Source of the DNA: an uncultured Candidatus Saccharibacteria bacterium | GTDB taxonomy: Bacteria; Patescibacteriota; Minisyncoccia; Phycocordibacterales; 01-FULL-45-15b | Direction of reading: 5' to 3' | DNA: 47,935 nucleotides | Assembly (NCBI GenBank): GCA_964373765.1 | Contig: CAYJVZ010000001.1 | Coordinates: 1-47,935, forward strand | Part shown: piece after piece, positions 20,074-40,031 of the stretch | Position numbering within the stretch: the stretch's first letter is position 1 | Layout: the number at the start of each line of letters is the position of its first letter | Made by a program: the position numbers and the translations under genes | The notes under the pieces: generated by a model | The model's database searches: none | Seen by the model: the letters and a program-made list of their open reading frames with translations, nothing else | Told to the model about the DNA's origin: nothing

Positions 20074-20208
20074 ATGTCAAGAACATATAAACCAAAGAGG
20101 AAAAAAAGAGCCAGAACTCACGGTTTTTTAGTCAGATCGAGAAGCCGGAGCGGCGCTAATGTCATAAAGAGAAGAAGAAGAAAGGGAAGAAAAATTATAG
20201 CCTTATAA
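20074..20208 (+). CDS. rpmH: Ribosomal protein L34 (not in the supplied ORF track)
   Basis: Hand translation gives [44 protein letters not shown] (44 aa), which matches the canonical L34 pattern. It lies upstream of rnpA. Confidence 0.9.
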
Positions 20209-20616: not shown

Positions 20617-21369
20617 ATGATTAAAGCCATCTACCACAGCGCCATTTACGAGCCTCTTTATAACGGGCTTGTTTTTTTGTTATCCCTCTTTCCGATGTGG
20701 ATGAACGTCGGTATCGCCATTATCATCTTTACCATAATTATTAAATTGATACTTTTCCCATTTTCCAAAATGGCAATAGTAACCCAGATAAGAATGAAAT
20801 TGCTCGAGCCGAAAATAAATGGCATAAAGGAAAAATATAAAAAAGACAAGCAAGAACAATCTATTCAAATGATGAAACTTTATAAAGAGCACAAACTAAA
20901 TCCTTTCTCCAGCATTCTGCTCATCTTAATTCAAATACCAATTATAATCGCCCTCTATAGGATTTTTCTTTTTGGCGGATTGCCAGACATAAATCTAGAA
21001 ATATTGTACAACTTTGTTTCCGCGCCAAAAGCGGTCAGCATGTCATTTTTTGGCGCCGATATGTCGGAAAAAAGTTATGTATTCGCTTTTCTTGCCGGCT
21101 TATCGCAATTTTTTCAAGCGAAATTCGCCATACCGGCAATGCCCAAAACAGACGGCAGCAAATCTATCAAAAATGATCTGGCTAAAACCATGCATTTGCA
21201 AATGCGCTACGTATTGCCAGTCATTATTTTTTTCGTTTCTTACCATGTCACGGCGGCGGTTGCCCTTTACTGGGTAACCAGTAATATTTTTGCCATAGGA
21301 CAGGAATTGGTCGTCAGAAGAAAACTGGAAAAAGATATAAATTTAGAACACCAAAACAATGCCAAATAA
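20617..21369 (+). CDS. yidC: Membrane protein insertase YidC (short form)
   Basis: Polytopic 250-aa protein with LYKEHKLNPFSS (compare LYKE..VNP), in the conserved rnpA-yidC-jag order. Confidence 0.85.
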   Translation: MIKAIYHSAIYEPLYNGLVFLLSLFPMWMNVGIAIIIFTIIIKLILFPFSKMAIVTQIRMKLLEPKINGIKEKYKKDKQEQSIQMMKLYKEHKLNPFSSILLILIQIPIIIALYRIFLFGGLPDINLEILYNFVSAPKAVSMSFFGADMSEKSYVFAFLAGLSQFFQAKFAIPAMPKTDGSKSIKNDLAKTMHLQMRYVLPVIIFFVSYHVTAAVALYWVTSNIFAIGQELVVRRKLEKDINLEHQNNAK

Positions 21370-21835
21370 TATGAATCGGGAAATCATAAGAAACAGCATA
21401 AACGGATTTATTGAGAAAATGGGTTTAAGCGCCGATTCTATTGATATTTCAGAAAAAGAAGACAACGCCGATTTTTCCTGTCTGATAAGAACAAAAGATT
21501 CAAGCTTGCTTATCGGCAAGGAGGGCAGAAATTTTTCGGCCATCCATCATTTGCTTAAACGGGTTATCTCTAAACAGTTGGCCAATCAAGATCTTAAGAT
21601 TTCTATAGATATAAACGATTACAAAAAAGAGCAGATAGAAAAAATTAAAATGAAAACTAAGATATTAGCCGAAAGAGCAAAATCAATGAATACCGAAGTG
21701 GAGATGGAGCCCATGGATTCCTATCAAAGAATGATAGTTCATTCTTTTTTTTCCGACAGCCTTGAGTTTGAAACATTTTCAAAAGGCGTAGGCGTGGAAA
21801 GAAGAGTGGTAATAAAGTATCTAAAACCGATTTAG
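21359..21835 (+). CDS. jag: Jag/KhpB-like KH plus R3H RNA-binding protein
   Basis: R3H-type motif MEPMDSYQRMIVHSFFSD at the C-terminus. It overlaps the yidC stop. Confidence 0.75.
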   Translation: MPNNMNREIIRNSINGFIEKMGLSADSIDISEKEDNADFSCLIRTKDSSLLIGKEGRNFSAIHHLLKRVISKQLANQDLKISIDINDYKKEQIEKIKMKTKILAERAKSMNTEVEMEPMDSYQRMIVHSFFSDSLEFETFSKGVGVERRVVIKYLKPI

Positions 21836-23112
21836 TCCGCTCTGATATCAACTAGCCATAATTTGCCGTCTTTTTTATCAACGAAAGACAAAAATTCTTC
21901 TTGGCTGTCGAAACTAAGCTTCGTAATATCAACGGCTCTTTCAATTTCATCCACAGTTGAGAGCAGAAGTTTTGTTTTTTTGTCATTTATGTCAATCATC
22001 CAAAGATCATCGCTGAAAGATATAAAGCCTTGGTACCATAAATCCGGATACAAAGCCTTGGGGATGACCCTTGGCACTCCGCAGTAAAAAACGCCATCAT
22101 TTTTTTTACTCCAAACGCATTTTTCCGGCAATGTGCCGAAATTAAGATCCCTAGCGCCATCGTTATTTCTGACTTTTAAAATTAGGCTATTATTATTACT
22201 TTCGGAATACAAAATATTTTTTAAATCCGGATCAGCCAAAACAGTAAGACCCAAAATGTCGCCCATAATTTTTGACCGCTTGCCGTTCGTGGCGTTTAGA
22301 TAATAGGAAAAACCCGCCTCAAGTCCGGATGGTTTGGTCGTAAGAACTAAAATGTTTTTAGACGGCCAAGAAACCAGCCAATCTTTTAGAGGAGATGAGT
22401 AAATTTTTGTTTTCTTTGCTCCGCTGACCGAAGAAACCGACCCCATGACCGAATCTGCGTCGAGAGTAAAGTAAAATACTTTATCCATGTCCGGCGGGGC
22501 GCTGATTCCATAAATAGAATCAACTGAAAAATTTACCGAAAGCTGAAACGGACTTTGTTCAAGTTCGCTTCTTGATTCTAATTTGGCCTCATTCTCTTTG
22601 CTAACTTCCCTTTTAACCAAAGTGGCGCTTAAAAGCTGGGGCTGACCGGTTTCCTCCTTTAGATATTGGGCCATTAAAGAATCGCCGTTATTAAGCCAAA
22701 GAACTTCATAAACTTTCGGTATAGTATCGTTGGAAAGAAGGACAGTCTCGTTCGTTTCTATGTCAACTTCTTTAATGTTACCGGATTTTTTCTCAAAGTA
22801 TCTTATGTAATTTCTGTTGTCTCTTTCAACAAAAATTGATCCAGACACGGCATTCTCGCTTATTATTCTAAACTTAGCGAGACTGGCTTCTTCATTCAAA
22901 GAGCCGGACTGATTAGAATTATCCACTTCATTTTTGATATTGCCATTGTCACTCGCGTCTTTGGCTTTACCAAAGTCTAAATTAATCAAATCGCCGATAT
23001 CCAGACTCAATTTGCCGCTTTTGCCGAAATTAGAATAATAAAAAACACCAAGGACGCTAAAAACGATGAGTATAAAAATTACAATTATTAAAATGGCTTT
23101 ATTTTTTTGCAT
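21832..23112 (-). CDS. Membrane-anchored extracytoplasmic protein; last gene of the T4SS-like operon
   Basis: N-terminal TM segment ILIIVIFILIVFSVLGVFYY, followed by about 390 aa of beta-rich sequence. It starts 3 nt after the pilin-like gene. Confidence 0.6.
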   Translation of the reverse strand: MQKNKAILIIVIFILIVFSVLGVFYYSNFGKSGKLSLDIGDLINLDFGKAKDASDNGNIKNEVDNSNQSGSLNEEASLAKFRIISENAVSGSIFVERDNRNYIRYFEKKSGNIKEVDIETNETVLLSNDTIPKVYEVLWLNNGDSLMAQYLKEETGQPQLLSATLVKREVSKENEAKLESRSELEQSPFQLSVNFSVDSIYGISAPPDMDKVFYFTLDADSVMGSVSSVSGAKKTKIYSSPLKDWLVSWPSKNILVLTTKPSGLEAGFSYYLNATNGKRSKIMGDILGLTVLADPDLKNILYSESNNNSLILKVRNNDGARDLNFGTLPEKCVWSKKNDGVFYCGVPRVIPKALYPDLWYQGFISFSDDLWMIDINDKKTKLLLSTVDEIERAVDITKLSFDSQEEFLSFVDKKDGKLWLVDIRAD

Positions 23113-23115
23113 AAA

Positions 23116-23694
23116 TTAAGGCTGAACTTGGGGATTAGAACTTTGCGGTCTGTTTGTAACACCCAAATTATCAGTGGGAACAGGTAATTGCGGGGCGCTC
23201 GGGTCAAAAGTTATTGGAGTTGTTAAGGATAATGGCCTAGTATTAGCGCCACTGGTATTAGCGGCGCTTGGTTCGTTGAGGGGAAGATCTAATTGCTTGA
23301 AACTAAGAATATCTGGATTAATAGTATTTAAAATCAGCCATGAAATCAAAGCCAGCATTAATCCAAGCAAAGCGTTTTTTATTATCTCCTTACCCTCGCT
23401 TTTGCCCGTGAAAGAATCAGTGCTCATATAAATGATTCCTCCGTACATAATCATGATAACCGCCAAAAGTCCGGCTATGCCGATTCCTATTTTAAAAATA
23501 TTAGTCAGATACTTTATCAGTCCGGTTTCACTGCTTACACCGCTTGTAAAAAATTTATCTGGCTGAAGCGGCAATTCCACCAGCGGCTCGTATGTTATAT
23601 TTTTAAGCGCTCCAACTTGAGCATAGGCAAAGTGGGCGCCTCCAAAAAGACTTATTAAAACAAAACTGATAAAAAACAGTTTCCTTTTTTGCAT
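23116..23694 (-). CDS. T4SS pilin-like (TrbC/VirB2-like) protein with a long Pro/Ser/Thr/Asn tail
   Basis: Start moved to MQKRKLFF at 23694, 1 nt after the upstream stop. The protein has a signal peptide ending AYAQ, then two hydrophobic helices (IGIGIAGLLAVIMIMYGGIIY and ALLGLMLALISWLILNTI) separated by a short charged loop. Confidence 0.5.
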   Translation of the reverse strand: MQKRKLFFISFVLISLFGGAHFAYAQVGALKNITYEPLVELPLQPDKFFTSGVSSETGLIKYLTNIFKIGIGIAGLLAVIMIMYGGIIYMSTDSFTGKSEGKEIIKNALLGLMLALISWLILNTINPDILSFKQLDLPLNEPSAANTSGANTRPLSLTTPITFDPSAPQLPVPTDNLGVTNRPQSSNPQVQP

Positions 23695-23695
23695 A

Positions 23696-24847
23696 TTAGA
23701 AATTGAAGAATGAGTCATTATTGTTTTCATAAAATATCCTAAAAGACGATCCCGCTTTCTGGAAAATGCTTTTTTTATGCGAGACATTGACAGCAACCGC
23801 GCTTTGGCCGCTACCGACATTCTCGTTTCTCAATATTATTTTGGAAGTCAGGTTTCCGGCGACGGTTTTGCCGTCAATTATCCAGAGGTATTCAAGGTCT
23901 TTGTCTTTATCCGCGATTTCGCCAAAAAAGAAAGGATAAGCGTTTAATGCCACTTCTTTACCTAAAAGATCTAATGATGAAAATACAGCCTTGTTGAATA
24001 AAACGCCTTCAAGCGGATCATCTTCATATATTATTACCGCAGGTGAAGATACCGGAATTGTTCTTCTTTTTAAAGCTGAAATACTGCCGGAGACATCGCT
24101 CACTTCCACCTCAACATTTATTGATTCGGCTAATATTGTCCCTTTGATAAAAACGACATTTTTTCCGTAACCAGACAAATCATTTCTGATTTTGCCGTTT
24201 ATCTTCCATTTATATAAAACATTTGAATTGCTCAAAATCTGACCGCCGGGGCCTGGCAATATGGCATCAGCCACGACCTTAACCACCGCTTCTCGCGAAA
24301 AAAGAGCTTTTCCTTTGTAAAACCAAGGAGTATATGTCTCGGCTTCCCAAAGTAAATCAATTTCCGATGGCACGATTCTTATTGATTCGTTGTGGGTTTT
24401 GCCGTCAATCGTTTCAATAGTTAAGTATATGTTTGATACGTTGCCCAGGCTTCCGGTCGTAAAACTGACGCTCTTTTCCCCATTGCCGCTTTTTATAATC
24501 CTGCCATTTAGCGTCCAAGTTATAAAACTTCTGTCCAAATTAGCGTAATAACTGTCAATTGATATATTTACATTTTCATTTGGGTTAGGATTTTTGGGAC
24601 TGATATTTATGACAAGAGGAAGTTTTTTTGTGGCTTCATCCAAAAGTTCCTGATCACTCGGGATATTATACAAAGCTCTGATTTCCTCTTCGCTAAGCGG
24701 GACTTGGGCAGTTGCCACAAAGACCGGTCCAGAATGGAAAAAAAATATCGTTAGCCAAATTGAAATTGCCAGTTTGGGAATTAATTTATTCGCTAATCTT
24801 TTCATATTGTCCAATTCATCGGCTAATTTTAGCACAATACCGGTCAA
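23696..24847 (-). CDS. Secreted protein with three Ig-like tandem repeats
   Basis: Signal or TM segment LAISIWLTIFFFHSGPVFVATAQ. A motif recurs three times, about 100 aa apart: ITWTLNGRIIKSG, YKWKINGKIRNDL and YLWIIDGKTVAGN. The start may be the Met at 24805. Confidence 0.6.
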   Translation of the reverse strand: MTGIVLKLADELDNMKRLANKLIPKLAISIWLTIFFFHSGPVFVATAQVPLSEEEIRALYNIPSDQELLDEATKKLPLVINISPKNPNPNENVNISIDSYYANLDRSFITWTLNGRIIKSGNGEKSVSFTTGSLGNVSNIYLTIETIDGKTHNESIRIVPSEIDLLWEAETYTPWFYKGKALFSREAVVKVVADAILPGPGGQILSNSNVLYKWKINGKIRNDLSGYGKNVVFIKGTILAESINVEVEVSDVSGSISALKRRTIPVSSPAVIIYEDDPLEGVLFNKAVFSSLDLLGKEVALNAYPFFFGEIADKDKDLEYLWIIDGKTVAGNLTSKIILRNENVGSGQSAVAVNVSHKKSIFQKAGSSFRIFYENNNDSFFNF

Positions 24848-24873
24848 ATCGTAAAAACCGCGCGATCTTAAAA

Positions 24874-25245
24874 TTACTTGATTATCGGCGGTTTTCCCGA
24901 GCCTTTGCCAATCGGCTTTTTTGAAAGCGGAATCTCAATTCCAGTTTTGTCTTCCACTATTACGGTCAGAATAATTATTATGACGCCAATCGTAATTGCC
25001 GGCAGGGCGCTTATGGCCGGAACAGCTTCAATGATGAGTGCGATAAGGGCGGTAGCCAATCTGCGCGGATTTATCAAAGGAACGTTTTTTAAAATGAACC
25101 ACAAGCCGAATGTTAAAGCGGCGATAACGTCAACAAAAATATTTACGATAGGGATTAAGCTTAAAAGATCAAAAAAAACAGCAGTGGTAATCATTAAAAA
25201 ACCCGTTATCCAGTCTATTCTCATCTCCTTCTTACCAGCTTCCAT
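24874..25245 (-). CDS. Small polytopic membrane protein
   Basis: 123 aa with 3-4 hydrophobic helices. It starts 3 nt after the VirB4-like stop. It was preferred over the antisense ORF 24878-25321 because of this operon fit. Confidence 0.5.
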   Translation of the reverse strand: MEAGKKEMRIDWITGFLMITTAVFFDLLSLIPIVNIFVDVIAALTFGLWFILKNVPLINPRRLATALIALIIEAVPAISALPAITIGVIIIILTVIVEDKTGIEIPLSKKPIGKGSGKPPIIK

Positions 25246-25248
25246 TTT

Positions 25249-27069
25249 CTATTTATTAGTAAGTTCTTTTTTAGCTTGCTTAATGGCTAGAATTTGCGAT
25301 GGGTCGGAAGTAATAATCTGATCCTCGGTGTAGGAAGCGATTACTTTTATAGCCACATGCTTAAGACCGACGAAAAATAATCCCTCGCCCACTTCTGATT
25401 CCAAAAGCAAATATTTTTCCTCGTCAGTTAGATTAAAAGTCTGCTGAACTCGGTCAATGGAGGTTGGGGATTGTTTCAAAAGTATTTGAATGGATGAGTT
25501 GGTGATGATTGGCAGGCCGTAAGGAGATTTTAGAAAATCGTCCACGTCTTGAGTTATGGTGGCAAGCCCCAAATAATATTTCCTTCCTCGTTTGGCCATG
25601 CTAAGCAAGAATGAAGCGGTGTCTTCAGACCTCATCATCCACCAGGCTTCGTCAATAACCAGAAGCCTTTTCTTTAGATTTTTTCTAACGGCATTCCAAA
25701 TGTAATGAGTGACAATATACATGGCGACAGGCTTCAATTCATCTTCCATGTCGCGTAGGGAAAAAACAATAAATTTATTATTTATATCTACATTGGTCGG
25801 CTTGTTTAAAAATCCCGCCCAAGTGCCCCTTGTGTATTTGCTAAGCCTCTGGACAAGGGACTCGCCTCCCTGCATTCCGGCTAAGACAAGCTCAAAATCC
25901 GACATTAAAGGCGGCTCTATTTTTGAAAAATCTGAATCAGCCGTAATGTCTTTTAAGGCGTATGTTTCAGTGATGGCCCGATCAACAATAGCGTCTTCTT
26001 CCGGTGTCAGGCCGTTCATCATAATTCTGAAAATACCGACAAGATTTATGATATTTGAACGCAGGACGTCGGCGCTGGATTCATCCTCTCTTGGCGTTGG
26101 CAGATCAAATGGATTAATGTGGCTTGAGGAGTTAAGCGAAATATTAAAATATTTTCCTCCCGTTGCCTGCGCCATGTATTCATACTCTCTCTCGGGATCA
26201 AGAACAATCACTTCTGTTTCAAACATCAGTGTCCTCAATATCTCAAGCTTGGTGGCGTATGATTTTCCGGAGCCGGATTTAGCGAAAGTGATTGAATTGT
26301 AATTTTCAAGCGAAAATCTATCAAACAGCACCATACTCGAATTGTGCCTGTTTATGCCGTACAAAATTCCCTTATCTGAAGTCAGGTCAAAGGAAATGAA
26401 CGGGAAAAGACTAGAAAGCGGAGAAGAATTTAACCTTGAGTGAACCATCAATTCATCAGTGGCGATAGGCAGCGTGCTTTTATAGCCCTGCTCCTGCTGA
26501 AAAAGAGCCGGTCTTATGTTTACTAATTTGGATTCCAGTATAGATCTTGCTTCCGATTCCAATTTGTCCAATTCAGCAATATTGTCGGCGTAAATAGTGA
26601 TATAGAGTCCCACCTCAAACAATTTTTCTTGGGCTTGCTGGAGATCGTCTCTAAGTTGCTCCAAATCCCGATAAGCCGTGTCTAATTTAGGATCTCTGAC
26701 CAAACCCTTCTCTTCCCTTCCATGAATTTGACTTTGAACCTCGGCCACTTTCTTTTGAAATTGCCTTAAAACTTTTGCCGTTTCAATCGGATGAATAAAT
26801 ATAGTGATATCAAAAACTTTGTCCAAATTGATTATCGGCGAGAACCATCCTTCAGAGAGAAAGCGCGGATAGGAAATAACAAAAAATGTTCTAGCCACCT
26901 TTCCTCCAAGATTCAATTCGCGCGGACCGACCTTAAGGGCCGATGGAGCGATGACATCTCTTAATTCTAAAACAGCCGATTCATATATTTCATTCGGCAA
27001 TATGGCGGTAATAGACTCATTGGAGTCTTTGTTTTTTTTGCTTTTGAATATAGAATCAAGAATTCCCAT
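25249..27069 (-). CDS. virB4: VirB4/TrbE/CagE-family type IV secretion ATPase
   Basis: Walker A FAKSGSGKSY, Walker B LLVIDEAWWMM, then RKYYLGLATITQDVDDF. The N-terminal pattern IAPSAL...ARTFFVISYPRFLSEGW is typical of Gram-positive-type VirB4 proteins. Confidence 0.8.
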   Translation of the reverse strand: MGILDSIFKSKKNKDSNESITAILPNEIYESAVLELRDVIAPSALKVGPRELNLGGKVARTFFVISYPRFLSEGWFSPIINLDKVFDITIFIHPIETAKVLRQFQKKVAEVQSQIHGREEKGLVRDPKLDTAYRDLEQLRDDLQQAQEKLFEVGLYITIYADNIAELDKLESEARSILESKLVNIRPALFQQEQGYKSTLPIATDELMVHSRLNSSPLSSLFPFISFDLTSDKGILYGINRHNSSMVLFDRFSLENYNSITFAKSGSGKSYATKLEILRTLMFETEVIVLDPEREYEYMAQATGGKYFNISLNSSSHINPFDLPTPREDESSADVLRSNIINLVGIFRIMMNGLTPEEDAIVDRAITETYALKDITADSDFSKIEPPLMSDFELVLAGMQGGESLVQRLSKYTRGTWAGFLNKPTNVDINNKFIVFSLRDMEDELKPVAMYIVTHYIWNAVRKNLKKRLLVIDEAWWMMRSEDTASFLLSMAKRGRKYYLGLATITQDVDDFLKSPYGLPIITNSSIQILLKQSPTSIDRVQQTFNLTDEEKYLLLESEVGEGLFFVGLKHVAIKVIASYTEDQIITSDPSQILAIKQAKKELTNK

Positions 27070-27090
27070 TTTAAGATATTTAAATTATTT

Positions 27091-27741
27091 TTAAACTTGA
27101 AGAGGTTTTTCAGAATCGCCGGGATTAAAAATTCTGTAAAACAATTCTACGATTTCTTCCGTTCCAAGCCTAACCACTCTAATTCCGCTTCTAGTTAATC
27201 CCTGTTCAACGACGCTCATCCTTTGGGAAAGCTGTGATTTAGCCTCGTCAAATTTATCCACATTGGCTTGAGTGTTTAAAAGGGCGCTTTCCTCATTATT
27301 CTTTTTTCTAAAAAGAGAACTGGCAAAATTTATTTTTTTCTTGTTGACCACGCTTGTGGCGTAGGGCACTATGACAAAAAAGCTTTTTGTCATGATGTTG
27401 GCGTTTTCAGTAAAATTTTTTATGAAATCAATATATTCGCTGGTTTGAAGCTTAAAGAGCTCGCCTTTTTGTTCTTTGTATCGTTGTTCAAGAAGAGCGA
27501 TGTAGGGTCTTATGTCTAATTTGCGCGACTGGATGAATATCTGAATGCTGAAATCAAGGGAGTTCATGAAATTTTGAAATTGGAAAATAATTGATCTTTG
27601 GTTTTCTTCCGACTTTAAGGCGAAATTGAGAGAGGACGTCATTAAAACTCCCCGAATTGAGCCATCTTTCAAAATGATGACCCCGTCGCGGATTTCTTCT
27701 ATCGGTACGAATTCTTGAGATGATTTCGCTTGAGTTGGCAT
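27091..27741 (-). CDS. Hypothetical cytoplasmic protein, T4SS-associated
   Basis: 216 aa, with the start pattern FVPIEEIRDGVIILKDGSIRGVLMTSSLNFALKSEEN. This resembles the N-termini of conjugative ATPases, but there is no P-loop. Confidence 0.55.
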   Translation of the reverse strand: MPTQAKSSQEFVPIEEIRDGVIILKDGSIRGVLMTSSLNFALKSEENQRSIIFQFQNFMNSLDFSIQIFIQSRKLDIRPYIALLEQRYKEQKGELFKLQTSEYIDFIKNFTENANIMTKSFFVIVPYATSVVNKKKINFASSLFRKKNNEESALLNTQANVDKFDEAKSQLSQRMSVVEQGLTRSGIRVVRLGTEEIVELFYRIFNPGDSEKPLQV

Positions 27742-27744
27742 ATT

Positions 27745-28224
27745 TTATGATAAATCCTTCATTAAGGCTTTTTCGTAATCTTCTTTCATTCTTGTTTTTT
27801 TGGACTGGTCTTTGGTTACTGGATTTAAGGCTTCTTTATTAACGTCCAGATTCCAAGTCAAATCTTTTAGCTTGCTGTCGCCTAGTTTAGGGACGCTAAG
27901 AAGAGCTTTGGCCTTGGGCGCCGCGCCTCTTTTTTGGGCTTTTATCTCGTTTTTCTTCCATAAATATAACTTTGCATTTATGAAATATTTTAAAGCGCTT
28001 TCAAGAATTAAAATAAAAGGGCGGTCATTGATTCTGCTAAAAGCCAAAGCGATGGAAAAAACGACAACGGGCAGGATTATAAAGATTGACAGGAAAATAG
28101 GCAATGAGCGATATGCGATAAAACTGATTGCCCCTCCGCCAACTAAATAGACGAATTGTTTTATGGTGAACGGCCCGATTATTTTATCTTCAACATCGGT
28201 AAATTGAGGCACTTGAAAACGCAT
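27745..28224 (-). CDS. PrgI-family (VirB3-like) membrane protein
   Basis: MRFQVPQFTDVEDKIIGPFTIKQFVYLVGG followed by two TM helices. This is the PrgI family pattern, and the gene lies upstream of VirB4. Confidence 0.5.
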   Translation of the reverse strand: MRFQVPQFTDVEDKIIGPFTIKQFVYLVGGGAISFIAYRSLPIFLSIFIILPVVVFSIALAFSRINDRPFILILESALKYFINAKLYLWKKNEIKAQKRGAAPKAKALLSVPKLGDSKLKDLTWNLDVNKEALNPVTKDQSKKTRMKEDYEKALMKDLS

Positions 28225-28346
28225 ATTATAATTATAACGCAGGATAAGCGCGTTACCAACGACTTTTTCAACGCAATTTAGTTTAAAGCGGAAACTCCTC
28301 TAGAATAGGGCTAGTTTAGAGAAGGCGTATTTCGGCCGCAAGCCAA

Positions 28347-29033
28347 TTAAACAGTCGGCTCCCTGTAAGGATCAACGGAGTATCCTCTGTTTTGGTTTTT
28401 GATCAGCGGTTTTTCAATGGGCGGTATTTCTTTTTTTATTTCCTCTTTAGGAATGGATACAACGGCATTTAGCTTTTGTTCAACGATGCTTAATTTGGAT
28501 TCTGCCGGCAGATTATCAGCTTTCAGCGAAAGAGCGCCAAAGCTCTTGCCCTGATTAGCCGCTACAGAAATGTTTGAAGTGGGCGAATCTTTTTCGGCTC
28601 TCGAAACCTGCGCGTTTATCTGATTTCCGCTTTTTATATTATTGCCGTATGGGCCTGTAAAACCTTCTGGTTTAAGCGGAGCTCGGCTTTCAGTTTTCTC
28701 TTCTTTACTTTCTTGAGCGATAGTTAAGCCTATCAATGAATTTCTTATAGGCTGAAAAATTTGCTCATTTATCTCAAGCGCCACCGCTTCTGTCATTTCT
28801 TTTGAAAGTCCCGCATTGGAGCTTAAATTTCTCATAAAATCCTTAGAATCCTGAAGGCCGAGCATAATAAGCATCACTTCCGTTTCTATATCTGCGATGC
28901 TGTCTAAATGAATGTTGTGTTTTCTGGCAATCTCGGCAATTTTTCTCGGCACTTCAGGCGAAGCCACCGAACGCCTTATATCTTCAGGCAGGGCCTTCAG
29001 TTTTTGTTCTATTAAATTTGCTATATTTGGCAT
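28347..29033 (-). CDS. Hypothetical protein
   Basis: 228 aa with no TM segment. It lies 20 nt downstream of the VirB6-like gene. Confidence 0.5.
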   Translation of the reverse strand: MPNIANLIEQKLKALPEDIRRSVASPEVPRKIAEIARKHNIHLDSIADIETEVMLIMLGLQDSKDFMRNLSSNAGLSKEMTEAVALEINEQIFQPIRNSLIGLTIAQESKEEKTESRAPLKPEGFTGPYGNNIKSGNQINAQVSRAEKDSPTSNISVAANQGKSFGALSLKADNLPAESKLSIVEQKLNAVVSIPKEEIKKEIPPIEKPLIKNQNRGYSVDPYREPTV

Positions 29034-29053
29034 TGAATTTAAATTTCTTTACA

Positions 29054-31369
29054 TTAACTTGTTTCACTTGCGGGTGGTTCTTCAGCCGTTCCTTCATCTT
29101 CGGCAATGTCTCTTGCCAATTTCTTTATCCTGTCTTCAACGCTTTCATCGCCACTCGCCTTTTTTTTGCCTTTTACTTTTTTATTCATTCTCCTTATCTC
29201 CTCGGCTATTTGTTGGTTTTCACTTTTTGACCACGCTCCGGCAATGCCCCTTTGGGCAATATTTCTTCCCTCCAAATTAGAAGCGTAATCAGTCTTGTCT
29301 TTCTCCGATTTTGAAAGGGCTTCGTCTGCCCTCTGAAGCTCGTCTTGGGCATTTGATATATCTCCCACAATGTTTCCCATTGTTGTTCCAACAGCATTTG
29401 CCAATCTGTTTCTCTCGTCAGTAATTAAAGTATTTCGTCTATTTTCAAAGTTTGCCAGCTTTTCTTCCAAATCCATTACTTCAGAATCAATTTCAGCCGA
29501 TTCCGTATCAGTTGGCGCTCTAGCTCTTCTTAGTTTTGCTTCATCAATTAATTTTTGGGTGTCATCAATATTTACCTTTAGATAGTCATAGTCTCTGTTT
29601 CTGTCAACATTTTCTTCCGCCTGATCATTTATCGCTTTCTCTCTTTCTTTAGCATTGACCAAAGCTGTATTGGCGTCGGCCTTTCTTCTTTTGCCCTGTT
29701 CTATGTCATCCATATATGTATCAGACACATATTCCTTTTCCGCTTTTAATCTTGCTTCAGCGTCAGCGCTATAGCCGCCTTTTCCTGTTGGTTTGCCCAA
29801 GTTTAGATTTTTGGAGAGATCTTTATTTATTCCCCTTGCGTCAAAACTGGATCCGGCAACTTTGCCCAAACCTTTTGTGGCTAATTTGCCAAGCATAGGA
29901 TTATCTCTCCTTAAATTTTTCATCATCTCGCTGTCTTTTATGGCCGCCGCTCCTCTGCCTATAGTCTGTCTGCCAGCATAACCGGCCGCGCCAAAAGTTA
30001 ATTTGCCTCCCCAATTGACGGCGGCGTCGGCTCCCCAAGCTCCCAATTTCTTTGCGATTACAATAGCGCCAAGAAGAAAAACCATGACGATGACATAATT
30101 AACTACTATTGTCATACTGGTTTGTCCCGTGTTTAGCAAGGACTGAACCAATGTTAAAGGCTGGCCATCCTGCGACGTTTTAGGCACAATAGATCTAAAT
30201 CCATCGCTTTGAAGAATGCGAAAAGCAATCAAAGTAAGGAGCATATAGGCGGGAGCGAATAAAATTTGCTCATTAAATGCTTGCCACCATTTTTTCGTAA
30301 GGCCGCTAAACTGCGGCAAAATAGCCGAGGCGAACATTAATGGAGAAAGGATCATTAAAAATATCAATATGACGAAACGGATAATAAATAATATGGCGGC
30401 CACCAAAAAGACAAATGCGGCCACTTGAATCAGTACAGCTCCCATAATAACAGCTGTAAACATACGTATCGGAACTGAAAGATTATCAGCTGCAACTTGA
30501 GCGGGGTTAAGGTTACGAAGAGGATTTGTCGCATTTGCCTCAATTAAATCTCCATATAGACTAGAAAGACTCAATGCATTCATTATTGTGTTTGAACCGC
30601 CTGTTTTTGAATAATCTTTTTTTTCTATTCGTCCCAAATCCTGTATACCAAGATCCGGCCATTGCTTATAAAAACCAAGGGCGATTATATTGGAGGCGTC
30701 AATTATCGCTTTAGTGAAAAACAAGCTGAAATTTATAAAAATTGCGGCAAGAATCAGATTCATTAATAATTTTTTGGTGTTGACGCTTGTCAGGCCCAAA
30801 ATTGTGCTAATGGCGATATAAAGAAGAATGAATATAAATAGCATATTGGCGAAATCTCTGATAACACCCCAAGCTGAATCAATTACCTTTAACTTATCAA
30901 TAGTATTAGCCATACTGGCGACGGTTATATCCAGCACAATGTTTAAAAGAAACCCAGTAAGCGCCAAAAAGAGAGAGACAAAAGCTAATATAATGTTTCC
31001 AATATACTGAAGAGCAATAGGAATCCAATTTGCCGGATTTAAATACTGCCACCACGATAATGATTTTTCTAGATTCTCATTCAATTTCTTTTCCCTTTCT
31101 TTTTTTTCCCTTTCTTCTCTGGCCACACTAGCCGCCGCTTGCTGTTCGGCGCGCCCGGCTAAGGGCCTTTCGTATAAAGAACTTGATTCATCAATTTTGT
31201 TAAGATTGCCTTTTTCATAAAGAATTTCGTAATTCGGGTTAATTATAGCGTTTGAAGTGTCGCTAGAAGCGAATATGGTATTGGCGTTTAGAGAAAATAA
31301 AATAGAAAATATGAAAATAAAAATAAGTGGTCCGGAGAAATTATTAAAATATTTTTTAAAACTACTCAT
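29054..31369 (-). CDS. Polytopic VirB6/TrbL-like membrane protein with a long charged coiled-coil C-terminal tail
   Basis: Signal peptide, then at least 6 hydrophobic helices between about aa 110 and 470. The final roughly 300 aa are rich in K/E/R/D heptad-like sequence. Confidence 0.5.
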   Translation of the reverse strand: MSSFKKYFNNFSGPLIFIFIFSILFSLNANTIFASSDTSNAIINPNYEILYEKGNLNKIDESSSLYERPLAGRAEQQAAASVAREEREKKEREKKLNENLEKSLSWWQYLNPANWIPIALQYIGNIILAFVSLFLALTGFLLNIVLDITVASMANTIDKLKVIDSAWGVIRDFANMLFIFILLYIAISTILGLTSVNTKKLLMNLILAAIFINFSLFFTKAIIDASNIIALGFYKQWPDLGIQDLGRIEKKDYSKTGGSNTIMNALSLSSLYGDLIEANATNPLRNLNPAQVAADNLSVPIRMFTAVIMGAVLIQVAAFVFLVAAILFIIRFVILIFLMILSPLMFASAILPQFSGLTKKWWQAFNEQILFAPAYMLLTLIAFRILQSDGFRSIVPKTSQDGQPLTLVQSLLNTGQTSMTIVVNYVIVMVFLLGAIVIAKKLGAWGADAAVNWGGKLTFGAAGYAGRQTIGRGAAAIKDSEMMKNLRRDNPMLGKLATKGLGKVAGSSFDARGINKDLSKNLNLGKPTGKGGYSADAEARLKAEKEYVSDTYMDDIEQGKRRKADANTALVNAKEREKAINDQAEENVDRNRDYDYLKVNIDDTQKLIDEAKLRRARAPTDTESAEIDSEVMDLEEKLANFENRRNTLITDERNRLANAVGTTMGNIVGDISNAQDELQRADEALSKSEKDKTDYASNLEGRNIAQRGIAGAWSKSENQQIAEEIRRMNKKVKGKKKASGDESVEDRIKKLARDIAEDEGTAEEPPASETS

Positions 31370-31370
31370 T

Positions 31371-32240
31371 TTATTGTCCCAATCCGCCAGTCATAACTTT
31401 AGTTACCAATAAATTAGCAAGGGCTAAAATAATATCGTCAAATTCACGAGAAAGATTCAGATAATCTAAATCGTTTCCGACCGCTTTGCTTAATTGATCG
31501 TTAATTAAAGTTCCCGGCGTCTTTATTTCCCCTGTTTCAGGGTCGGTAAGGGATCTAAAACCATTTCCCCAGCCAAGTATTTTGTCTTCTAGAGTCGTTC
31601 TTGAGGCTATACGATTATTAAGCGAATTTTGGACTACCATATATGAGCCGAAAAGATTATTCTCGGGATTTTGAGTCATGATAATCCACTCATCCCAGCC
31701 GCCCTGGCTAAAGTCGCCATTTCTAAAATCGTCAAAGCCTGCGATGATGCCGGTAATAGTGCAACGAGCGGGCTGGCTGAAGCGGGCGTGCTGGGAAAGA
31801 AAGCCAAATTGGATTTGAGCCTTAAATGGATCGCATAAAAAACCAAGGGCGCTTCCGTCAATTATTCTTCCAAACTCTTCATCGACTATGTCTGCAAAAA
31901 AACCAGCCGGATCTGTAACAAAGGTCGGTCCGCCTTCAAATCCGCGATTTATCCAATCAACAATAGAGGTAGTCAGCTGATGGACCAGCGTTCTCATCAA
32001 AGTCTTCACTATTTTGTCCAAAATACACTCCTTGATTGAATTGTTGTTTGTGGCTAAAGCCGTTTGGGTGTTAACTGCCGCGTTTTCCGTGTCATAAACC
32101 GGCACAAAAACGCTTTTTGGCACTGGTGGAGCCGCAAAAAATGGGCAAGCCAGAGCGTATGACTTTTCTGGGCGCAAAAACATTATCGGTCCGCCTAGTA
32201 TCAATAATATTAAAAACGCTATTGTTATTTTTTTTAGCAT
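31371..32240 (-). CDS. Secreted hypothetical protein
   Basis: N-terminal TM or signal segment IAFLILLILGGPIMFL, with several Cys residues. It ends 1 nt before the VirB6-like start. Confidence 0.55.
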   Translation of the reverse strand: MLKKITIAFLILLILGGPIMFLRPEKSYALACPFFAAPPVPKSVFVPVYDTENAAVNTQTALATNNNSIKECILDKIVKTLMRTLVHQLTTSIVDWINRGFEGGPTFVTDPAGFFADIVDEEFGRIIDGSALGFLCDPFKAQIQFGFLSQHARFSQPARCTITGIIAGFDDFRNGDFSQGGWDEWIIMTQNPENNLFGSYMVVQNSLNNRIASRTTLEDKILGWGNGFRSLTDPETGEIKTPGTLINDQLSKAVGNDLDYLNLSREFDDIILALANLLVTKVMTGGLGQ

Positions 32241-32281
32241 TATTTTCTCCTTGCGCCTAAGCGCTTTGCCATAATTTTATA

Positions 32282-33268
32282 CTATTGATAAATGTGAAGA
32301 AAGGCATAGCCGAGCGAATTTTGGTCCGGAGCCACCGCCGAATCTTCAAAAAAAATGGAAATGTCGCGCAATGCCAAATTGAACTCCTCCGCGCTGCGAT
32401 TATAGTCGCTTAAGTTGGTAATGGCCGAGTAAGGGTCGCTGTAAATCTCCTTCATATTGTTTATAGTTTGAGCCACTTTCTCCATACTATTAACCAAGTT
32501 TAAGTGCTTGTTTGAGAGGCTTTTGGGCACGGAAACAATAAGCGATCTCTCTATAATTTTTTTATAAACTCTGACAATGGCGTCAATTTTCTTTAATTCG
32601 TCGGGATCATTGTTTAAAATTGATCGCTCAATGATAACTAATTCCTGTTCCGTTTTTTCATAGGAAGGATCAAATAGGATATTGCCCATATTATTGGCGT
32701 AATCTCTAAGGGCTTTTTCGTCGTCTTCAAATATTATTTTTAAATTAGCCAAAGTGTAAGACTTTATGGTCTTTGAAGACGCCAAATTCGCGCTTATCAC
32801 GCTTCTGATTAAAGCCTGCTCCTCTTCTTTGGTAAGCTCTGCCCCGCCTTGCTTTAAGGCTAAATATTTTTCAAAAAGATTTTTGGCGATTTTATCCGTT
32901 GGATTTAGATTTTCCGTTGAATAAGAAGCCAGACTTTCTGATATGGAATTTTGATCGCGGTCAAATTTATCATTCGGGCCCTTTTTGGTTGGATTGCGCC
33001 CGAGCCTAACTTCTTCTCCATCGCTTGTGCCGTCGCCATCGCTATCCGCTTCGTTTGGCTTCGTTCCCCACAAGACTTCCTCCCAATCTTTAAGTCCATC
33101 GTTGTCCAAATCCAATTCAACGATCAAAGAGTCGCCGCTTTCTCTTGACGCTATAAGAGAACTTTGATCATTACCCGCCTCATTTTTATTTATAAAGTTG
33201 TATACGGCGAAAATGAGAAATAAAGCGGCGGCCACTGATAAAATTATAAAGGTTTTTTTTGAAGCCAT
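32282..33268 (-). CDS. Membrane-anchored protein with thrombospondin type-3-like Ca-binding repeats; first gene of the operon
   Basis: TM segment FIILSVAAALFLIFAVYNFI, then DLDNDGLKDWEE and DSDGDGTSDGEE (DxDxDG motifs). Confidence 0.6.
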   Translation of the reverse strand: MASKKTFIILSVAAALFLIFAVYNFINKNEAGNDQSSLIASRESGDSLIVELDLDNDGLKDWEEVLWGTKPNEADSDGDGTSDGEEVRLGRNPTKKGPNDKFDRDQNSISESLASYSTENLNPTDKIAKNLFEKYLALKQGGAELTKEEEQALIRSVISANLASSKTIKSYTLANLKIIFEDDEKALRDYANNMGNILFDPSYEKTEQELVIIERSILNNDPDELKKIDAIVRVYKKIIERSLIVSVPKSLSNKHLNLVNSMEKVAQTINNMKEIYSDPYSAITNLSDYNRSAEEFNLALRDISIFFEDSAVAPDQNSLGYAFLHIYQ

Positions 33269-33354
33269 TTTTATAGTGAAAATTATATCATAGTAATTCT
33301 ATACTTCCTTTAGCTCTACTGCTTGGACACGCCAAAAAAGCCATTTGGACGCGG

Positions 33355-33399
33355 AAAAGAGCCACTTGGACAGGGGCGCGGCGTCCAAGCGGCTCTTTT
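33355..33399. promoter_or_regulatory. GC-rich 17-bp-stem hairpin inside a divergent promoter region
   Basis: aaaagagccacttggac-(11 nt)-gtccaagcggctctttt, with one mismatch. It is flanked by an A-run and a T-run, and further TTGGAC copies lie upstream. Confidence 0.5.
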
Positions 33400-33470: not shown

Positions 33471-34601
33471 ATGAAAAATCTTACTCTATATTTATTTGGT
33501 TTTTTGGTAATTGTTTTTTTTAGTTTTCAAATATTTCCCCTTATAGTTCTTGCCCGCTATGTCGAGCCACTCGGCTTTAGCGGTTTTAATCAAAATCTTA
33601 AGCAGGGCGACAGGAATTCGAACGTTCTGGTCTTACAAAGATTTCTAAACACTGATCCAGACACGATTGTTTCCAACTCTGGATTTGGATCAGAGGGAAA
33701 CGAAACAGATTATTTCGGGCCATTGACCAAAGATGCCGTTATCCGATTTCAAAATAAATACGCTGATGAAATTTTAAGGCCGATTGACCTTGATTACGGA
33801 ACCGGATTTGTCGGCTTAAAAACAAGAGCTTGGTTGAATTCTTTGCGGCCGACCCAACTTTCTTTATCGGAAAGCGCTAATTCAAGCAGTGGCAATATTG
33901 TAAAAACCAGCGCCGAAACAAGCCAAACTCAAATGAGAACTGAAGAGCAGAGAAAACTGCAGGATCGATTAATACCTCAAGTAGCCGATGTAAGTGAATT
34001 GCTTATAAAAAATGTGTACCAAGAAAATGACCCTGCGGTTAGACTGATATTTCTATCCAGCCATTCGGGCAGCTTCGATGAAACAATATCTTTTTACGGC
34101 ACAGGCTTTTTGCCTTCCGGAAACACAATTCATTTTGGCGAAGCCTATATGATCCAAGATATTCAAAGTTCTTCGCCTAACAAAATAATTGTCAATTTGG
34201 ATAAAAGTATACCGCCCGCAAATTACAGCGTTTGGATTTCAAACAAAAACGGACAAAGCGACAAAAATCAATTTTTCGTCATAACCGACGGCTTTTCTTC
34301 TCCACCGGTGATTAAAAATATTCTTCCAGCCGAAGCTACATATAAAACCGAAATGACCATTATCGGAAGCGGCTTTAGCAAAGAAGGCAATGAGGTAAGA
34401 ACCAGTTTTGGCATTATTCCCTCGGTTTCTTCTTTTGACGGACAGACTTTGCGCTTTACTATAGATACGCCGGAGCTGCTGACTTTAAGCCAATTAAAAA
34501 ATAAAGGCAAAAATGTTACTTTTGAAATGCCCGCTTGGGTTTACGTGGTCAATAAAAACGGTATTTCAAAGGAACAGCTTCAATTTAAAATAAAAATATG
34601 A
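33471..34601 (+). CDS. Secreted peptidoglycan-binding-domain protein with IPT/TIG-like repeats
   Basis: N-terminal TM segment. PG_binding_1-like segment LKQGDRNSNVLVLQRFLN...YFGPLTKDAVIRFQNKY. Two beta-sandwich-like repeats (ISFYGTGF.., MTIIGSGF..). Confidence 0.6.
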   Translation: MKNLTLYLFGFLVIVFFSFQIFPLIVLARYVEPLGFSGFNQNLKQGDRNSNVLVLQRFLNTDPDTIVSNSGFGSEGNETDYFGPLTKDAVIRFQNKYADEILRPIDLDYGTGFVGLKTRAWLNSLRPTQLSLSESANSSSGNIVKTSAETSQTQMRTEEQRKLQDRLIPQVADVSELLIKNVYQENDPAVRLIFLSSHSGSFDETISFYGTGFLPSGNTIHFGEAYMIQDIQSSSPNKIIVNLDKSIPPANYSVWISNKNGQSDKNQFFVITDGFSSPPVIKNILPAEATYKTEMTIIGSGFSKEGNEVRTSFGIIPSVSSFDGQTLRFTIDTPELLTLSQLKNKGKNVTFEMPAWVYVVNKNGISKEQLQFKIKI

Positions 34602-39041: not shown

Positions 39042-40031
39042 TTGTTATCATCAACACTAATTTTTCCAATAAAAGCAGAAGCCAATATTATTTCGCTGAT
39101 ATCAAGTTTTTTTGCGGATAAAATAAACGTGGCGGAAAATATTCAAAAAAACTTTGTTTCTGAAACAAATTCTCAAAATATGCAGCTTTTGAAGGCTATT
39201 ACAAGCATAGATTTATTAGAAGCAAGAGGCGGTGGGGAAATAGTCATAGTTGATAATAGCGCTATTTCGCCTGAAATCGGTCCGGCCGGCACTATTGGCG
39301 CAGTTATCGAAAGACCTATAAACCAGCAAATTAGCGTCTATGTGGTGCGACAGGATGACACTCTTTCATCAATAGCAAAAATGTTTGGAGTTTCGGTCAA
39401 CACTATATTGTGGGCCAATGATTTAAAATCGAGCGTTATCCATGAAGGTGACACTTTAATAATTTTACCAATTTCCGGAGTGCTCCATAAAGTTCTAAAA
39501 GGAGAAACTTTAGCTTCTATAGCTAAAAAATATAAGGCTGATATTGGAGATATAGTTAGTTTCAACGATTTAGATGAAGACACTGTTCTTGCCGCCGGCA
39601 CGGAAATAACCATCCCAGATGGCGAAATTGACGCGCCTAAAGCCTATCTATCAACATCACCGCTTCGAGGCTCAACTGGTCCAGCTTACGAAGGTTACTA
39701 CATTAGACCAATTGCCGGCGGGAAAACTCAGAGCTTGCACGGGTATAACGGAATTGATCTATCTGGTTTGTATGGAACGCCTATCGTAGCCTCTGCGAGC
39801 GGTGTTGTAATAATTTCCAAAATTGGCGGATGGAACGGAGGTTACGGAACTTATATTGTAATCAACCATGACAATGGCACTCAAACGCTCTATGCTCACA
39901 ACAGCGCGAACATAGTTTTTGGCGGCGAAAGAGTTGTCCGAGGCCAAGTCATAGGTTATGTCGGAAGCACAGGCAAATCCACGGGACCACATGTCCATTT
40001 TGAAGTTCGAGGAGCTAAAAATCCTTTCTAG
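39042..40031 (+). CDS. LysM-domain M23 metallopeptidase (peptidoglycan hydrolase)
   Basis: Two LysM repeats (DDTLSSIAKMFGVSVNTILWANDL and GETLASIAKKYKADIGDIVSFNDL). M23 motifs HNSANIV...GYVGSTGKSTGPHVHFEV. The 5' end is uncertain: the start is a TTG and the frame stays open back to 38898. Confidence 0.85.
   Translation: MLSSTLIFPIKAEANIISLISSFFADKINVAENIQKNFVSETNSQNMQLLKAITSIDLLEARGGGEIVIVDNSAISPEIGPAGTIGAVIERPINQQISVYVVRQDDTLSSIAKMFGVSVNTILWANDLKSSVIHEGDTLIILPISGVLHKVLKGETLASIAKKYKADIGDIVSFNDLDEDTVLAAGTEITIPDGEIDAPKAYLSTSPLRGSTGPAYEGYYIRPIAGGKTQSLHGYNGIDLSGLYGTPIVASASGVVIISKIGGWNGGYGTYIVINHDNGTQTLYAHNSANIVFGGERVVRGQVIGYVGSTGKSTGPHVHFEVRGAKNPF

Follow-up and report, generated by a model that had tools for sequence, protein, structure and literature searches.

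Contig CAYJVZ010000001.1 of an uncultured patescibacterium was analyzed over its entire public length of 47,935 bp (hereafter the window), which is also the limit of the readable sequence. It contains a block of eleven open reading frames (ORFs) on the minus strand, named here g11 to g1 in their reading direction (33268 down to 21832). We find that this block is the known origin-proximal, relaxase-less type IV secretion system (T4SS) of the Patescibacteria (candidate phyla radiation, CPR) and not a new kind of system. Very probably it is the chromosomal T4SS of these bacteria in its Paceibacteria arrangement, derived from the conjugation machinery of the monoderm MPF-FATA class, with relaxase and type IV coupling protein (T4CP) lost or never adjacent, and kept as a core operon by the replication origin. 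New here are an accessory protein (g1) predicted by structural modeling to be a membrane-anchored beta-propeller, the assignment by profile search of a second one (g10) to a family that has no annotation and comprises over 6000 clusters, and the observation that the orthologous pilins appear to bear swappable C-terminal tails, a few of them hydrolase-like. The initial annotation had called the locus essentially uncharacterised. This was overstated for the system as such, since its existence, its missing relaxase and its location are already published (PMC12102498, PMC10633639, PMC12857230), and is correct for the Paceibacteria-specific accessory genes: g1, g3, g4, g8, g10 and g11 are not discussed in PMC12102498, where the legend of Fig. 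6 gives genes without a database match in grey.

The ORF listing of the whole window reproduced the eleven same-strand genes and their tight packing as first annotated, with gaps from g1 to g11 of 3, 1, 26, 3, 21, 3, 122, 20, 1 and 41 nt. The jag ORF (21359-21835, plus strand; R3H and KH domains) converges with g1 (21832-23112, minus strand), and the two have 4 nt in common at the jag stop. Relatives of g5, the ATPase gene of the block, were searched in one genome per GTDB species; more than 576 were found, and the best 80 were analyzed. These have 78-84% identity to g5 and lie in metagenome-assembled genomes labeled Paceibacteria, Parcubacteria, Taylorbacteria, Zambryskibacteria or generic Patescibacteria. 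Synteny was counted in the 38 of these 80 loci with at least 20 kb of sequence (contigs up to 700 kb), and most orthologue counts refer to 35 sequences. The order uvrD - ksgA - (TIG/PG-binding gene) - g11...g1 - (jag) - yidC - (rnpA) - dnaA was constant in all 38 loci, and g1, g2, g3, g5, g6, g7, g9 and g10 were detected in every one of them.

The motor of the system is recognized with the highest scores. The 606-aa product of g5 (25249..27069; this and all other genes of the block are on the minus strand) matches the NCBIfam equivalog conju_CD1110 with 369.9 bits (cut-off 325) over model positions 183-733 of 752. Its Pfam matches to P-loop_TraG (96.3 bits) and AAA_10 (39.5 bits, gathering score 27.5) both pass, while CagE_TrbE_VirB, with 19.5 bits, falls marginally short of its threshold of 21. 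Both the Walker A (GSGKS) and the Walker B (VIDEAW) motifs are intact. These matches agree with the VirB4-type ATPase of the initial annotation and identify g5, by its sequence, as a VirB4 of the monoderm CD1110/MPF-FATA type. Its nearest plasmid homologues belong to Bacillota and Actinomycetota, with 27-37% identity.

The adjacent g6 (27091..27741), encoding 216 aa without any hydrophobic segment, is the detached N-terminal domain of VirB4, comparable to TrsD. All its NCBIfam matches are short of the curated cut-offs; they cover positions 101-255 of VirB4_plasma and 2-121 of conju_CD1110, and the match to TrsD/TraD reaches 32.3 bits for a cut-off of 200. The TrsD-like identity is instead supported by a collinear BLASTP alignment with residues 25-197 of a 797-aa clostridial VirB4 (E 2e-5) and by a precomputed PF26593 TraC-like match. 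Because g6 covers the N-terminal and g5 the remaining positions of one and the same model, VirB4 is split into two genes. The g6 protein was found in 79 of the 80 related loci, with a median identity of 59%. A separate TrsD protein, and hence a split VirB4, is also described for pGO1-type systems (PMC12102498).

The other core components are membrane proteins and a pilin. The 159-aa product of g7 (27745..28224) matches PF12666 PrgI with 39.2 bits (gathering score 27), as expected for the PrgI/VirB3-like protein first proposed, and was detected in 75 of the 80 loci with a median identity of 50%. The 771-aa product of g9 (29054..31369) has a signal-like N-terminus, six to seven hydrophobic segments within residues 126-439 and a charged hydrophilic C-terminal region of about 330 aa, a topology which fits the 'extended VirB6' pattern described in PMC12857230. 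A TrbL match (PF04610) had been anticipated for this protein: the copy in the window gave none, and 6 of the 35 orthologues did (best E 1.9e-7). Among 12 VirB/D4 proteins, Agrobacterium VirB6 was the top match of g9 at an insignificant score, and hhalign comparisons with the clostridial CD1112 VirB6 and with Agrobacterium VirB6 were not significant. We therefore call g9 VirB6/TrbL-like by transitivity only, through its orthologues. The 192-aa product of g2 (23116..23694) confirms the predicted two-helix pilin: residues 63-125 match PF18895 with 30.2-30.7 bits (gathering score 26.6), as in 33 of 35 orthologues, three of the 35 matching TrbC/VirB2; the score against the Mbov_0395 pilin-like model, 26.6 bits, is short of the cut-off of 40. 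This VirB2-like protein is built of a signal peptide, the two-helix core and a 67-aa low-complexity C-terminal tail rich in Pro, Ser, Thr, Asn and Gln (23116-23316).

This set of components corresponds to a published system. Quinonero-Coronel (2025, Microb Genom, PMC12102498) described a Patescibacteria-specific VirB4 clade related to MPF-FATA, with TrsD, PrgI/VirB3, VirB6 and VirB2-like pilins near virB4, almost never accompanied by a relaxase. In Paceibacteria the neighbourhood of virB4 is rich in dnaA, dnaN, rnpA, ksgA and rpmH, and M23/LysM-containing 'VirB1' homologues are counted as virB4-associated (PMC12102498). The locus has an equal component set, in which VirB6 is recognized through orthologues only, an equal neighbourhood, no relaxase or T4CP nearby and an M23/LysM 'VirB1' within 20 coding sequences; nothing essential is different, and it is a member of that system. 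The second reference is Southlakia epibionticum, whose T4SS genes were reported to be essential when it grows as an epibiont; that study also pointed out the pilins and that neither a coupling protein nor a relaxase is present (Wang 2023, Cell, PMC10633639); both papers are covered by a 2025 FEMS review (PMC12857230). In strain ML1, genes SEML1_0004-0019 resemble the locus in that they adjoin dnaA-dnaN, have VirB4 preceded by a 293-aa protein and PrgI, encode VirB6-like giants and PF18895 pilins, lack relaxase and T4CP in the cluster, and were found essential by transposon sequencing (PMC10633639). The Southlakia cluster differs by its six tandem pilins, versus one in the locus, and by including lysozyme/Cys-protease, Hedgehog/DD-peptidase and NTF2-like (VirB8-like) proteins, whereas the block has no embedded hydrolase; the published Southlakia table holds no beta-propeller, TSP3 or g10-type annotation (PMC10633639).

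The block was also compared with conjugative prototypes. The locus, the clostridial pCDC3875 and pCF10 agree in the core gene order VirB6 - PrgI - (one gene) - VirB4 - small protein. With regard to the Prg/Pcf proteins of pCF10, the CD1110-type system of pCDC3875 and the Trs systems of pGO1/pSK41, the likeness extends to the CD1110 match of VirB4, the core order and the separate TrsD. The monoderm MPF-FATA modules, however, are mobile and carry a VirD4 (PcfC/CD1115), a relaxase, a VirB1-type hydrolase (PrgK/SLT) and the VirB8-like PrgL, none of which was detected in the locus; in pCDC3875 and pCF10, VirD4, the large hydrolase, PrgL and the relaxase come after the core genes. Helicobacter ComB provides a T4CP-less DNA uptake system, with a VirB4-type ATPase, VirB6-like and pilin-like proteins and no relaxase, in which VirB7-10 are present; these envelope parts are absent from the locus. 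Like the locus, the crenarchaeal Ced system, which takes up DNA without a T4CP or relaxase, has a VirB4-type ATPase, a VirB6-like protein and small pilin-like proteins (cited in PMC12102498). No specific homology to Ced was found in the locus, the scores being 32.5 bits for CedB (cut-off 700) and 16.3 for CedD (cut-off 600), that is, generic VirB4 P-loop similarity only. Unlike the Gram-positive T4SS classes, which are described as having no major pilin (virB2) genes, the locus encodes a PF18895 pilin (PMC12102498).

The absence of a DNA-transfer module was examined at several levels. A Pfam scan of all window ORFs of at least 90 aa that were judged to be genes detected no relaxase, T4CP, VirB11, VirB8/9/10 or integrase, in line with the initial annotation, and the window has no tRNA and no Rfam RNA. 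Tblastn searches with PcfC of pCF10, the clostridial VirD4 and the relaxase PcfG, as well as with PrgK, the SLT hydrolase and PrgL, gave nothing at E<=0.01 in 1.34 Mb of sequence, made up of the window and, to 10 kb from virB4, the 80 related loci; the PrgJ/VirB4 control was positive in 81 of 81. Around the block there is no integrase, tRNA or flanking-repeat signature.

The evolutionary rates point in the same direction as the synteny. Pairwise distances of VirB4 correlate with those of DnaA (Spearman 0.52, permutation p<=0.0005) nearly as do those of YidC (0.56). VirB4 is the slowest-evolving protein compared, at about half the rate of DnaA, with a mean pairwise distance of 0.18 (DnaA 0.38, YidC 0.52, exported partners of the block 0.67-0.70). 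Accordingly, the median identity among the relatives is 80% for VirB4, 63.5% for DnaA, 54% for UvrD, 47% for YidC and 46% for KsgA. Because its synteny is fixed in 38 of 38 loci and VirB4 co-diverges with DnaA, the block is a vertically inherited core machine and not an integrative and conjugative element (ICE), and the early view that it is embedded in the origin cluster and not recently acquired holds. The rate pattern is that of a core machine under strong constraint whose surface parts change fast, and not that of an ICE or a remnant.

Six accessory proteins complete the block. The initial annotation had recognized four parts only, which proved too few: in addition to the TrsD-like g6, the predicted propeller of g1 and the TSP3 repeats of g11 can be named, and g3 has weak Ig-like matches. 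The description of the other seven as all secreted or membrane-anchored stands for five of them and fails for g6 and for the 228-aa g8, which have no hydrophobic segment. Scanned directly with Pfam and NCBIfam models, five of the eleven proteins (g1, g4, g8, g9 and g10) had no match. Of the six accessory families, only the TSP3 stretch of g11 was matched significantly in profile searches of PDB sequences, and hidden Markov models (HMMs) of the six families and of g9 and g2, compared with pCF10 PrgC-PcfG, pCDC3875 and Agrobacterium VirB1-11/D4, never exceeded about 10 bits. Since these comparisons with prototype T4SS proteins are null, the accessory proteins are either new or diverged past sequence detection. 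The HMM comparisons also gave no relation of g3, g8 or g11 to VirB8/PrgL at the sequence level; g3, g4, g8 or g11 might still hide an NTF2 fold.

The best-defined accessory protein is g1 (21832..23112, 426 aa), the product of the last gene. Its AlphaFold2 model, based on 66 sequences (pLDDT 87.7, pTM 0.80), has a helix at residues 2-28, a low-confidence stretch at 31-74 and an all-beta domain at 81-422, and a Foldseek search of the PDB with this domain returned WD40 and TolB propellers at E values of about 1e-9. The protein is thus modeled as an N-terminal membrane anchor followed by a disordered linker of about 45 aa and a beta-propeller. One g1 homologue carries PF07676; the g1 profile against PDB sequences reached TolB at an insignificant E of 0.07. 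Structure prediction followed by Foldseek, the approach suggested at the outset for the proteins of unassigned function, succeeded for g1 and failed for g10.

The 289-aa g10 protein (31371..32240) would be exported by its hydrophobic N-terminus (residues 4-22) and consists of a conserved core domain only, with a W-I-N-x-G-F-x-G-x-P motif, two invariant Cys and a T-P-G motif. The core has no match in the Pfam copy used, in NCBIfam or in the PDB, and no solved relative. Most orthologues are larger, 500-820 aa, and end in F5/8-type-C (5/30), Ig-like or PKD domains. When 1.84 billion cluster representatives (50% identity) were searched with a profile, 6030 of them belonged to the family at E<=1e-3 and 3156 at E<=1e-30. 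The AlphaFold2 model of g10, made from 33 sequences, is poor (pLDDT 61, nearly all helix by DSSP), and Foldseek returned nothing for it; a deeper profile of 110 sequences matched in the PDB only a low-complexity stretch of Ski7. The helical low-confidence model, the export, the position before VirB6 and the variable C-termini offer a lead towards a VirB5-like tip adhesin; the comparison with Agrobacterium VirB5 was null by HMM and by hhalign.

The first gene of the block, g11 (32282..33268, 328 aa), encodes an N-terminal membrane anchor (transmembrane segment 8-26), TSP3-type calcium-binding repeats and a domain of about 200 aa without assignment. The repeats match PF18884 TSP3_bac with 37.6 bits (gathering score 25), as they do in 18 of 35 orthologues, and a PDB profile match to Bap (E 6.8e-5) is limited to the same stretch. 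The gene was detected in 30 of the 38 large loci, at a constant position. For g3 (23696..24847), an exported protein of 383 aa if read from a TTG start at 24847, a GTG at 24835 (379 aa, the public Logan gene call) or an ATG at 24805 is equally or more likely as the start, and only from the ATG does a standard signal peptide, ending A-T-A-Q, result. Given these alternative starts, the 26-nt gap upstream of g3 could also measure 38 or 68 nt. By eye, a W-x-(I/L)-(N/D)-G motif was seen three times, PKD_3 scores 23.7 bits (below its gathering score of 26.3), and some orthologues weakly match BiPBP_C (7/35) and Ig_3 (3/35). The g3 protein possibly holds three Ig-like domains.

The two remaining accessory proteins are a small membrane protein and a predicted cytoplasmic one. 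The small polytopic membrane protein g4 (24874..25245, 123 aa), encoded directly downstream of virB4, has three hydrophobic segments and, among its orthologues, one invariant Asp. It gave no Pfam match of note and none to PrgF, PrgG or VirB3, and was detected in 18 of the 38 large loci. A role of g4 as a second pilin was considered and ruled out by hhalign (probability 0.5%). In the predicted cytoplasmic g8 (28347..29033), a conserved domain of about 100 aa at the N-terminus is followed by a variable linker and a conserved C-terminal D-P-Y-R-E motif (28347-28364). In the 35 aligned sequences D221, Y223 and E225 are invariant, P222 and R224 conserved in at least 90%, and this end looks like a docking peptide. 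Neither Pfam nor the PDB holds a match to g8; its homologue search retrieved nine proteins only, and tblastn detected it in 24 of the 38 large loci.

In the related loci, nearly all pilin orthologues have the signal peptide and the two-helix VirB2-like core followed by a C-terminal tail of 9-446 aa, and these tails form several unrelated families (examples of tailed pilins are L025:13784-14839, L029:15314-16363, L023:13008-13979 and L038:13293-14252). One family is CHAP/NlpC-P60-like, with Pfam CHAP in two members, NLPC_P60 in one, and weak PDB matches to 7cfl and 6bim. A second, rich in Cys, shares invariant H, D and E residues and closes with H-W; a third has a 'TEAxPPT..H..CH' motif; other tails are coiled-coil-like, and one has a He_PIG Ig domain. 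Two of the tail families were considered as LAS/M15-type zinc peptidases on account of an H...D...E...HW motif seen by eye, an assignment that PDB profile searches did not confirm and that we keep as a lead only.

How the parts might work together can be proposed as follows. The homology of g5, g6 and g7, and through its orthologues that of g9, is established by the matches above, and by analogy with Gram-negative T4SS structures and Gram-positive genetics (reviewed in PMC12857230) we infer that the VirB4 motor g5 and the separate N-terminal domain g6 dock on the membrane through the PrgI/VirB3 protein g7 and the extended VirB6 g9. VirB4 would pull the VirB2-like pilin g2 out of the membrane and polymerize it on the VirB6 platform, giving a wall-crossing pilus or conduit. 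The g1 propeller together with g3, g10 and g11 would make up the wall-spanning and host-contact part, with g4 acting at the membrane and g8 at its cytoplasmic face; among these accessory proteins a fold is supported by a model for g1 and only hinted at for g3. The machine would serve the host-dependent (episymbiotic) life style and not conjugation, and our committed guess is a contact pilus or conduit for the uptake of host-derived macromolecules. This is judged most likely because the searches of the locus and its surroundings showed no coupling protein and because the cell has a single membrane. DNA import by Patescibacteria T4SS has been put forward as a hypothesis (PMC12102498).

Several points weigh against this interpretation. 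The essentiality data come from one Saccharibacterium with differing accessory genes. The absence of a T4CP covers only the 47.9-kb contig and 10 kb on either side of virB4 in the relatives, was probed with two VirD4 proteins, and has to be set beside the VirD4-like genes present elsewhere in many Patescibacteria genomes (PMC12102498). The g9 protein of the window itself matches neither Pfam, TrbL PF04610 included, nor NCBIfam. No VirB8-like or VirB1-like component was detected inside the block, and for this reason any envelope-spanning architecture is guesswork. The uptake direction is a guess. Furthermore, deletion of comEC in Southlakia ends competence and leaves the cells viable (PMC12857230), so that simple ComEC-coupled DNA uptake cannot explain the essentiality.

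The homology and collinearity of VirB4, PrgI and VirB6 with the conjugation modules of Bacillota plasmids would also be expected of an ordinary conjugative element, an ICE or integrated plasmid, whose relaxase, coupling protein and integrase lie beyond the contig; the window being the whole contig, and VirD4-like genes being found elsewhere in many Patescibacteria genomes (PMC12102498), leave room for such distant parts. We regard this as very improbable, since the position between ksgA/uvrD and yidC/dnaA is constant in all 38 loci, VirB4 co-diverges with DnaA and is the more conserved of the two, the VirD4 and relaxase probes were negative within 10 kb in the 80 relatives, no integrase, tRNA or flanking repeats were found, and the GC content across the block (0.38-0.41) is inside the range of the remaining window. 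That the DNA-processing half, VirB1 and VirB8 are missing and that VirB4 is split in two genes could likewise suggest a functionless, decaying remnant of an ancient conjugative element. Such decay is hardly conceivable for eleven intact and tightly packed ORFs with intact Walker motifs, in which the split VirB4 is kept as two genes in 79 of 80 relatives, as in pGO1-type systems, and is about 80% identical across species-level genomes versus about 63% for DnaA.

A functional machine could work in ways other than uptake, and two such readings are kept as serious alternatives. Injection or release of effector proteins into a host bacterium was raised by Wang et al. as an alternative to DNA transfer for Southlakia (PMC10633639), and exported accessory proteins with binding domains could mediate the contact with a target. 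We consider export unlikely, because a coupling protein, the usual receptor of cytoplasmic substrates, was found neither in the locus nor, within 10 kb of virB4, in the relatives, and because no candidate effector gene is conserved beside the block in the related loci. Ptl of Bordetella exports a toxin assembled in the periplasm, and monoderms have no periplasm. The T4CP-less exporters, Bordetella Ptl and Brucella VirB (named in PMC12102498), are indeed both diderm. A pilus for adhesion or contact only, in which VirB4, VirB3 and VirB6 assemble a VirB2-type fibre through which nothing passes, would agree with a set of VirB2, VirB3, VirB4 and VirB6 that comprises pilin, ATPase and membrane parts and no substrate receptor, and the variable, adhesin-like binding or hydrolase-like modules at the C-termini of orthologous pilins and g10 would suit it. 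It is nevertheless rather improbable in our view: Patescibacteria already adhere by type IV pili (PMC10633639, PMC12857230), a PilB-type ATPase is encoded at 8375-10042 of the window, and the conservation of the motor and the essentiality in Southlakia, on top of type IV pili, suggest more than redundant attachment. As an extension that we hold to be possible, if on balance doubtful, the machine may be a modular device for host contact and penetration, in which pilin and g10 cores with swappable C-terminal modules, together with the g1 propeller, set the host range and breach the host wall. The module types in the pilin and g10 orthologues are lectin-like F5/8-type-C, Ig-like, CHAP/NlpC-P60-like, Cys-rich H...D...E...HW and coiled-coil-like, and the window would be a minimal version with its 67-aa low-complexity pilin tail and core-only g10. 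We know of no T4SS in which pilus subunits display cell-wall hydrolases or lectins.

Transcription signals were searched by consensus only, and the resulting 40 sites are not far above the 30 +/- 5 seen in shuffled sequences. The best promoter-like match on the operon strand is a sigma-70-like TTGGTA-17-TATAAT (10/12 matches) at 28231..28259, minus strand, in the 122-nt gap upstream of prgI (g7). This candidate internal promoter may split the block into the units g11-g8 and g7-g1. A further TATAAT box, again a consensus match, precedes the g11 start by 14-19 nt. A GC-rich hairpin with 17-nt arms of 94% complementarity, bordered by runs of A and of T, occupies 33334-33399, in the region of the divergent promoters of g11 and the TIG/PG-binding gene. 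Its left arm is duplicated 21 nt upstream, making two alternative stems possible, and the predicted energy of the segment 33325-33410 is -30.8 kcal/mol on the plus and -37.4 kcal/mol on the minus strand. The hairpin has no Rfam match, no counterpart of its 15-nt arm motif (<=2 mismatches) turned up in the 80 related loci, and it is the only notable inverted repeat seen in the search for oriT-like features.

The remaining ORFs of at least 90 aa that were judged genes are housekeeping genes or have no Pfam match. Among those identified outside the block are dnaN, dnaA (18577-19938), rpmH (20074-20208), rnpA, yidC, jag, ksgA and uvrD/pcrA; polA, tsaE, a PilB-type ATPase, ruvB, yebC, ruvC, tyrS and a class A penicillin-binding protein; and a LysM-M23 peptidase, purC, a ComM-like protein, PNPase, a NYN protein and S15. 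The divergent neighbour of g11 (33471..34601, plus strand, 376 aa) encodes IPT/TIG (Pfam TIG 34.9 bits) and peptidoglycan (PG)-binding domains (PG_binding_1 22.3 bits, marginally short of its gathering score, 23). It stands beside the block in 19 of the 38 large loci; its product is possibly an associated cell-wall protein, of uncertain membership in the system. About 6 kb from the block, the LysM-LysM-Peptidase_M23 protein (39042..40031, plus strand; Pfam Peptidase_M23 94.5 bits, LysM 79.4 bits) is a candidate to replace the missing VirB1 hydrolase in function, its membership being likewise uncertain.

Other genes of the contig are noted for completeness. Between ksgA and uvrD, a 219-aa ORF (35844-36503) weakly matches an IS200-like Y1 transposase (18.9 bits, gathering score 23) and was found in 1 of the 80 related loci; it may be a lineage-specific insertion beside the conserved block. 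At 6645-7274, where the GC content is locally raised (0.46), a 209-aa ORF without Pfam match combines a signal-like N-terminus with a long low-complexity region rich in Gly, Tyr and Ser (GYGGGYGGYGSSYG...). The PilB/T2SSE-type ATPase at 8375-10042 (384.9 bits) and a ComM-like Mg-chelatase-family protein at 41399-42961 (305.8 bits) indicate that, in addition to the T4SS, the genome carries genes of a type IV pilus and others associated with competence.

Taken together, the system and its location are known, the lineage-specific accessory set is what goes beyond published descriptions, and the function of the machine is one that we infer. A large part of the bacterial diversity that is still uncultivated belongs to Patescibacteria, which depend on hosts, and in the single species tested, Southlakia, the T4SS is essential for growth on the host. 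The locus shows the Paceibacteria form in a clean and minimal state: one pilin, a g10 that consists of its core only, and no hydrolase within the block. It also gives a defined list of six conserved accessory partners to guide structural and genetic work on how episymbionts tap their hosts.

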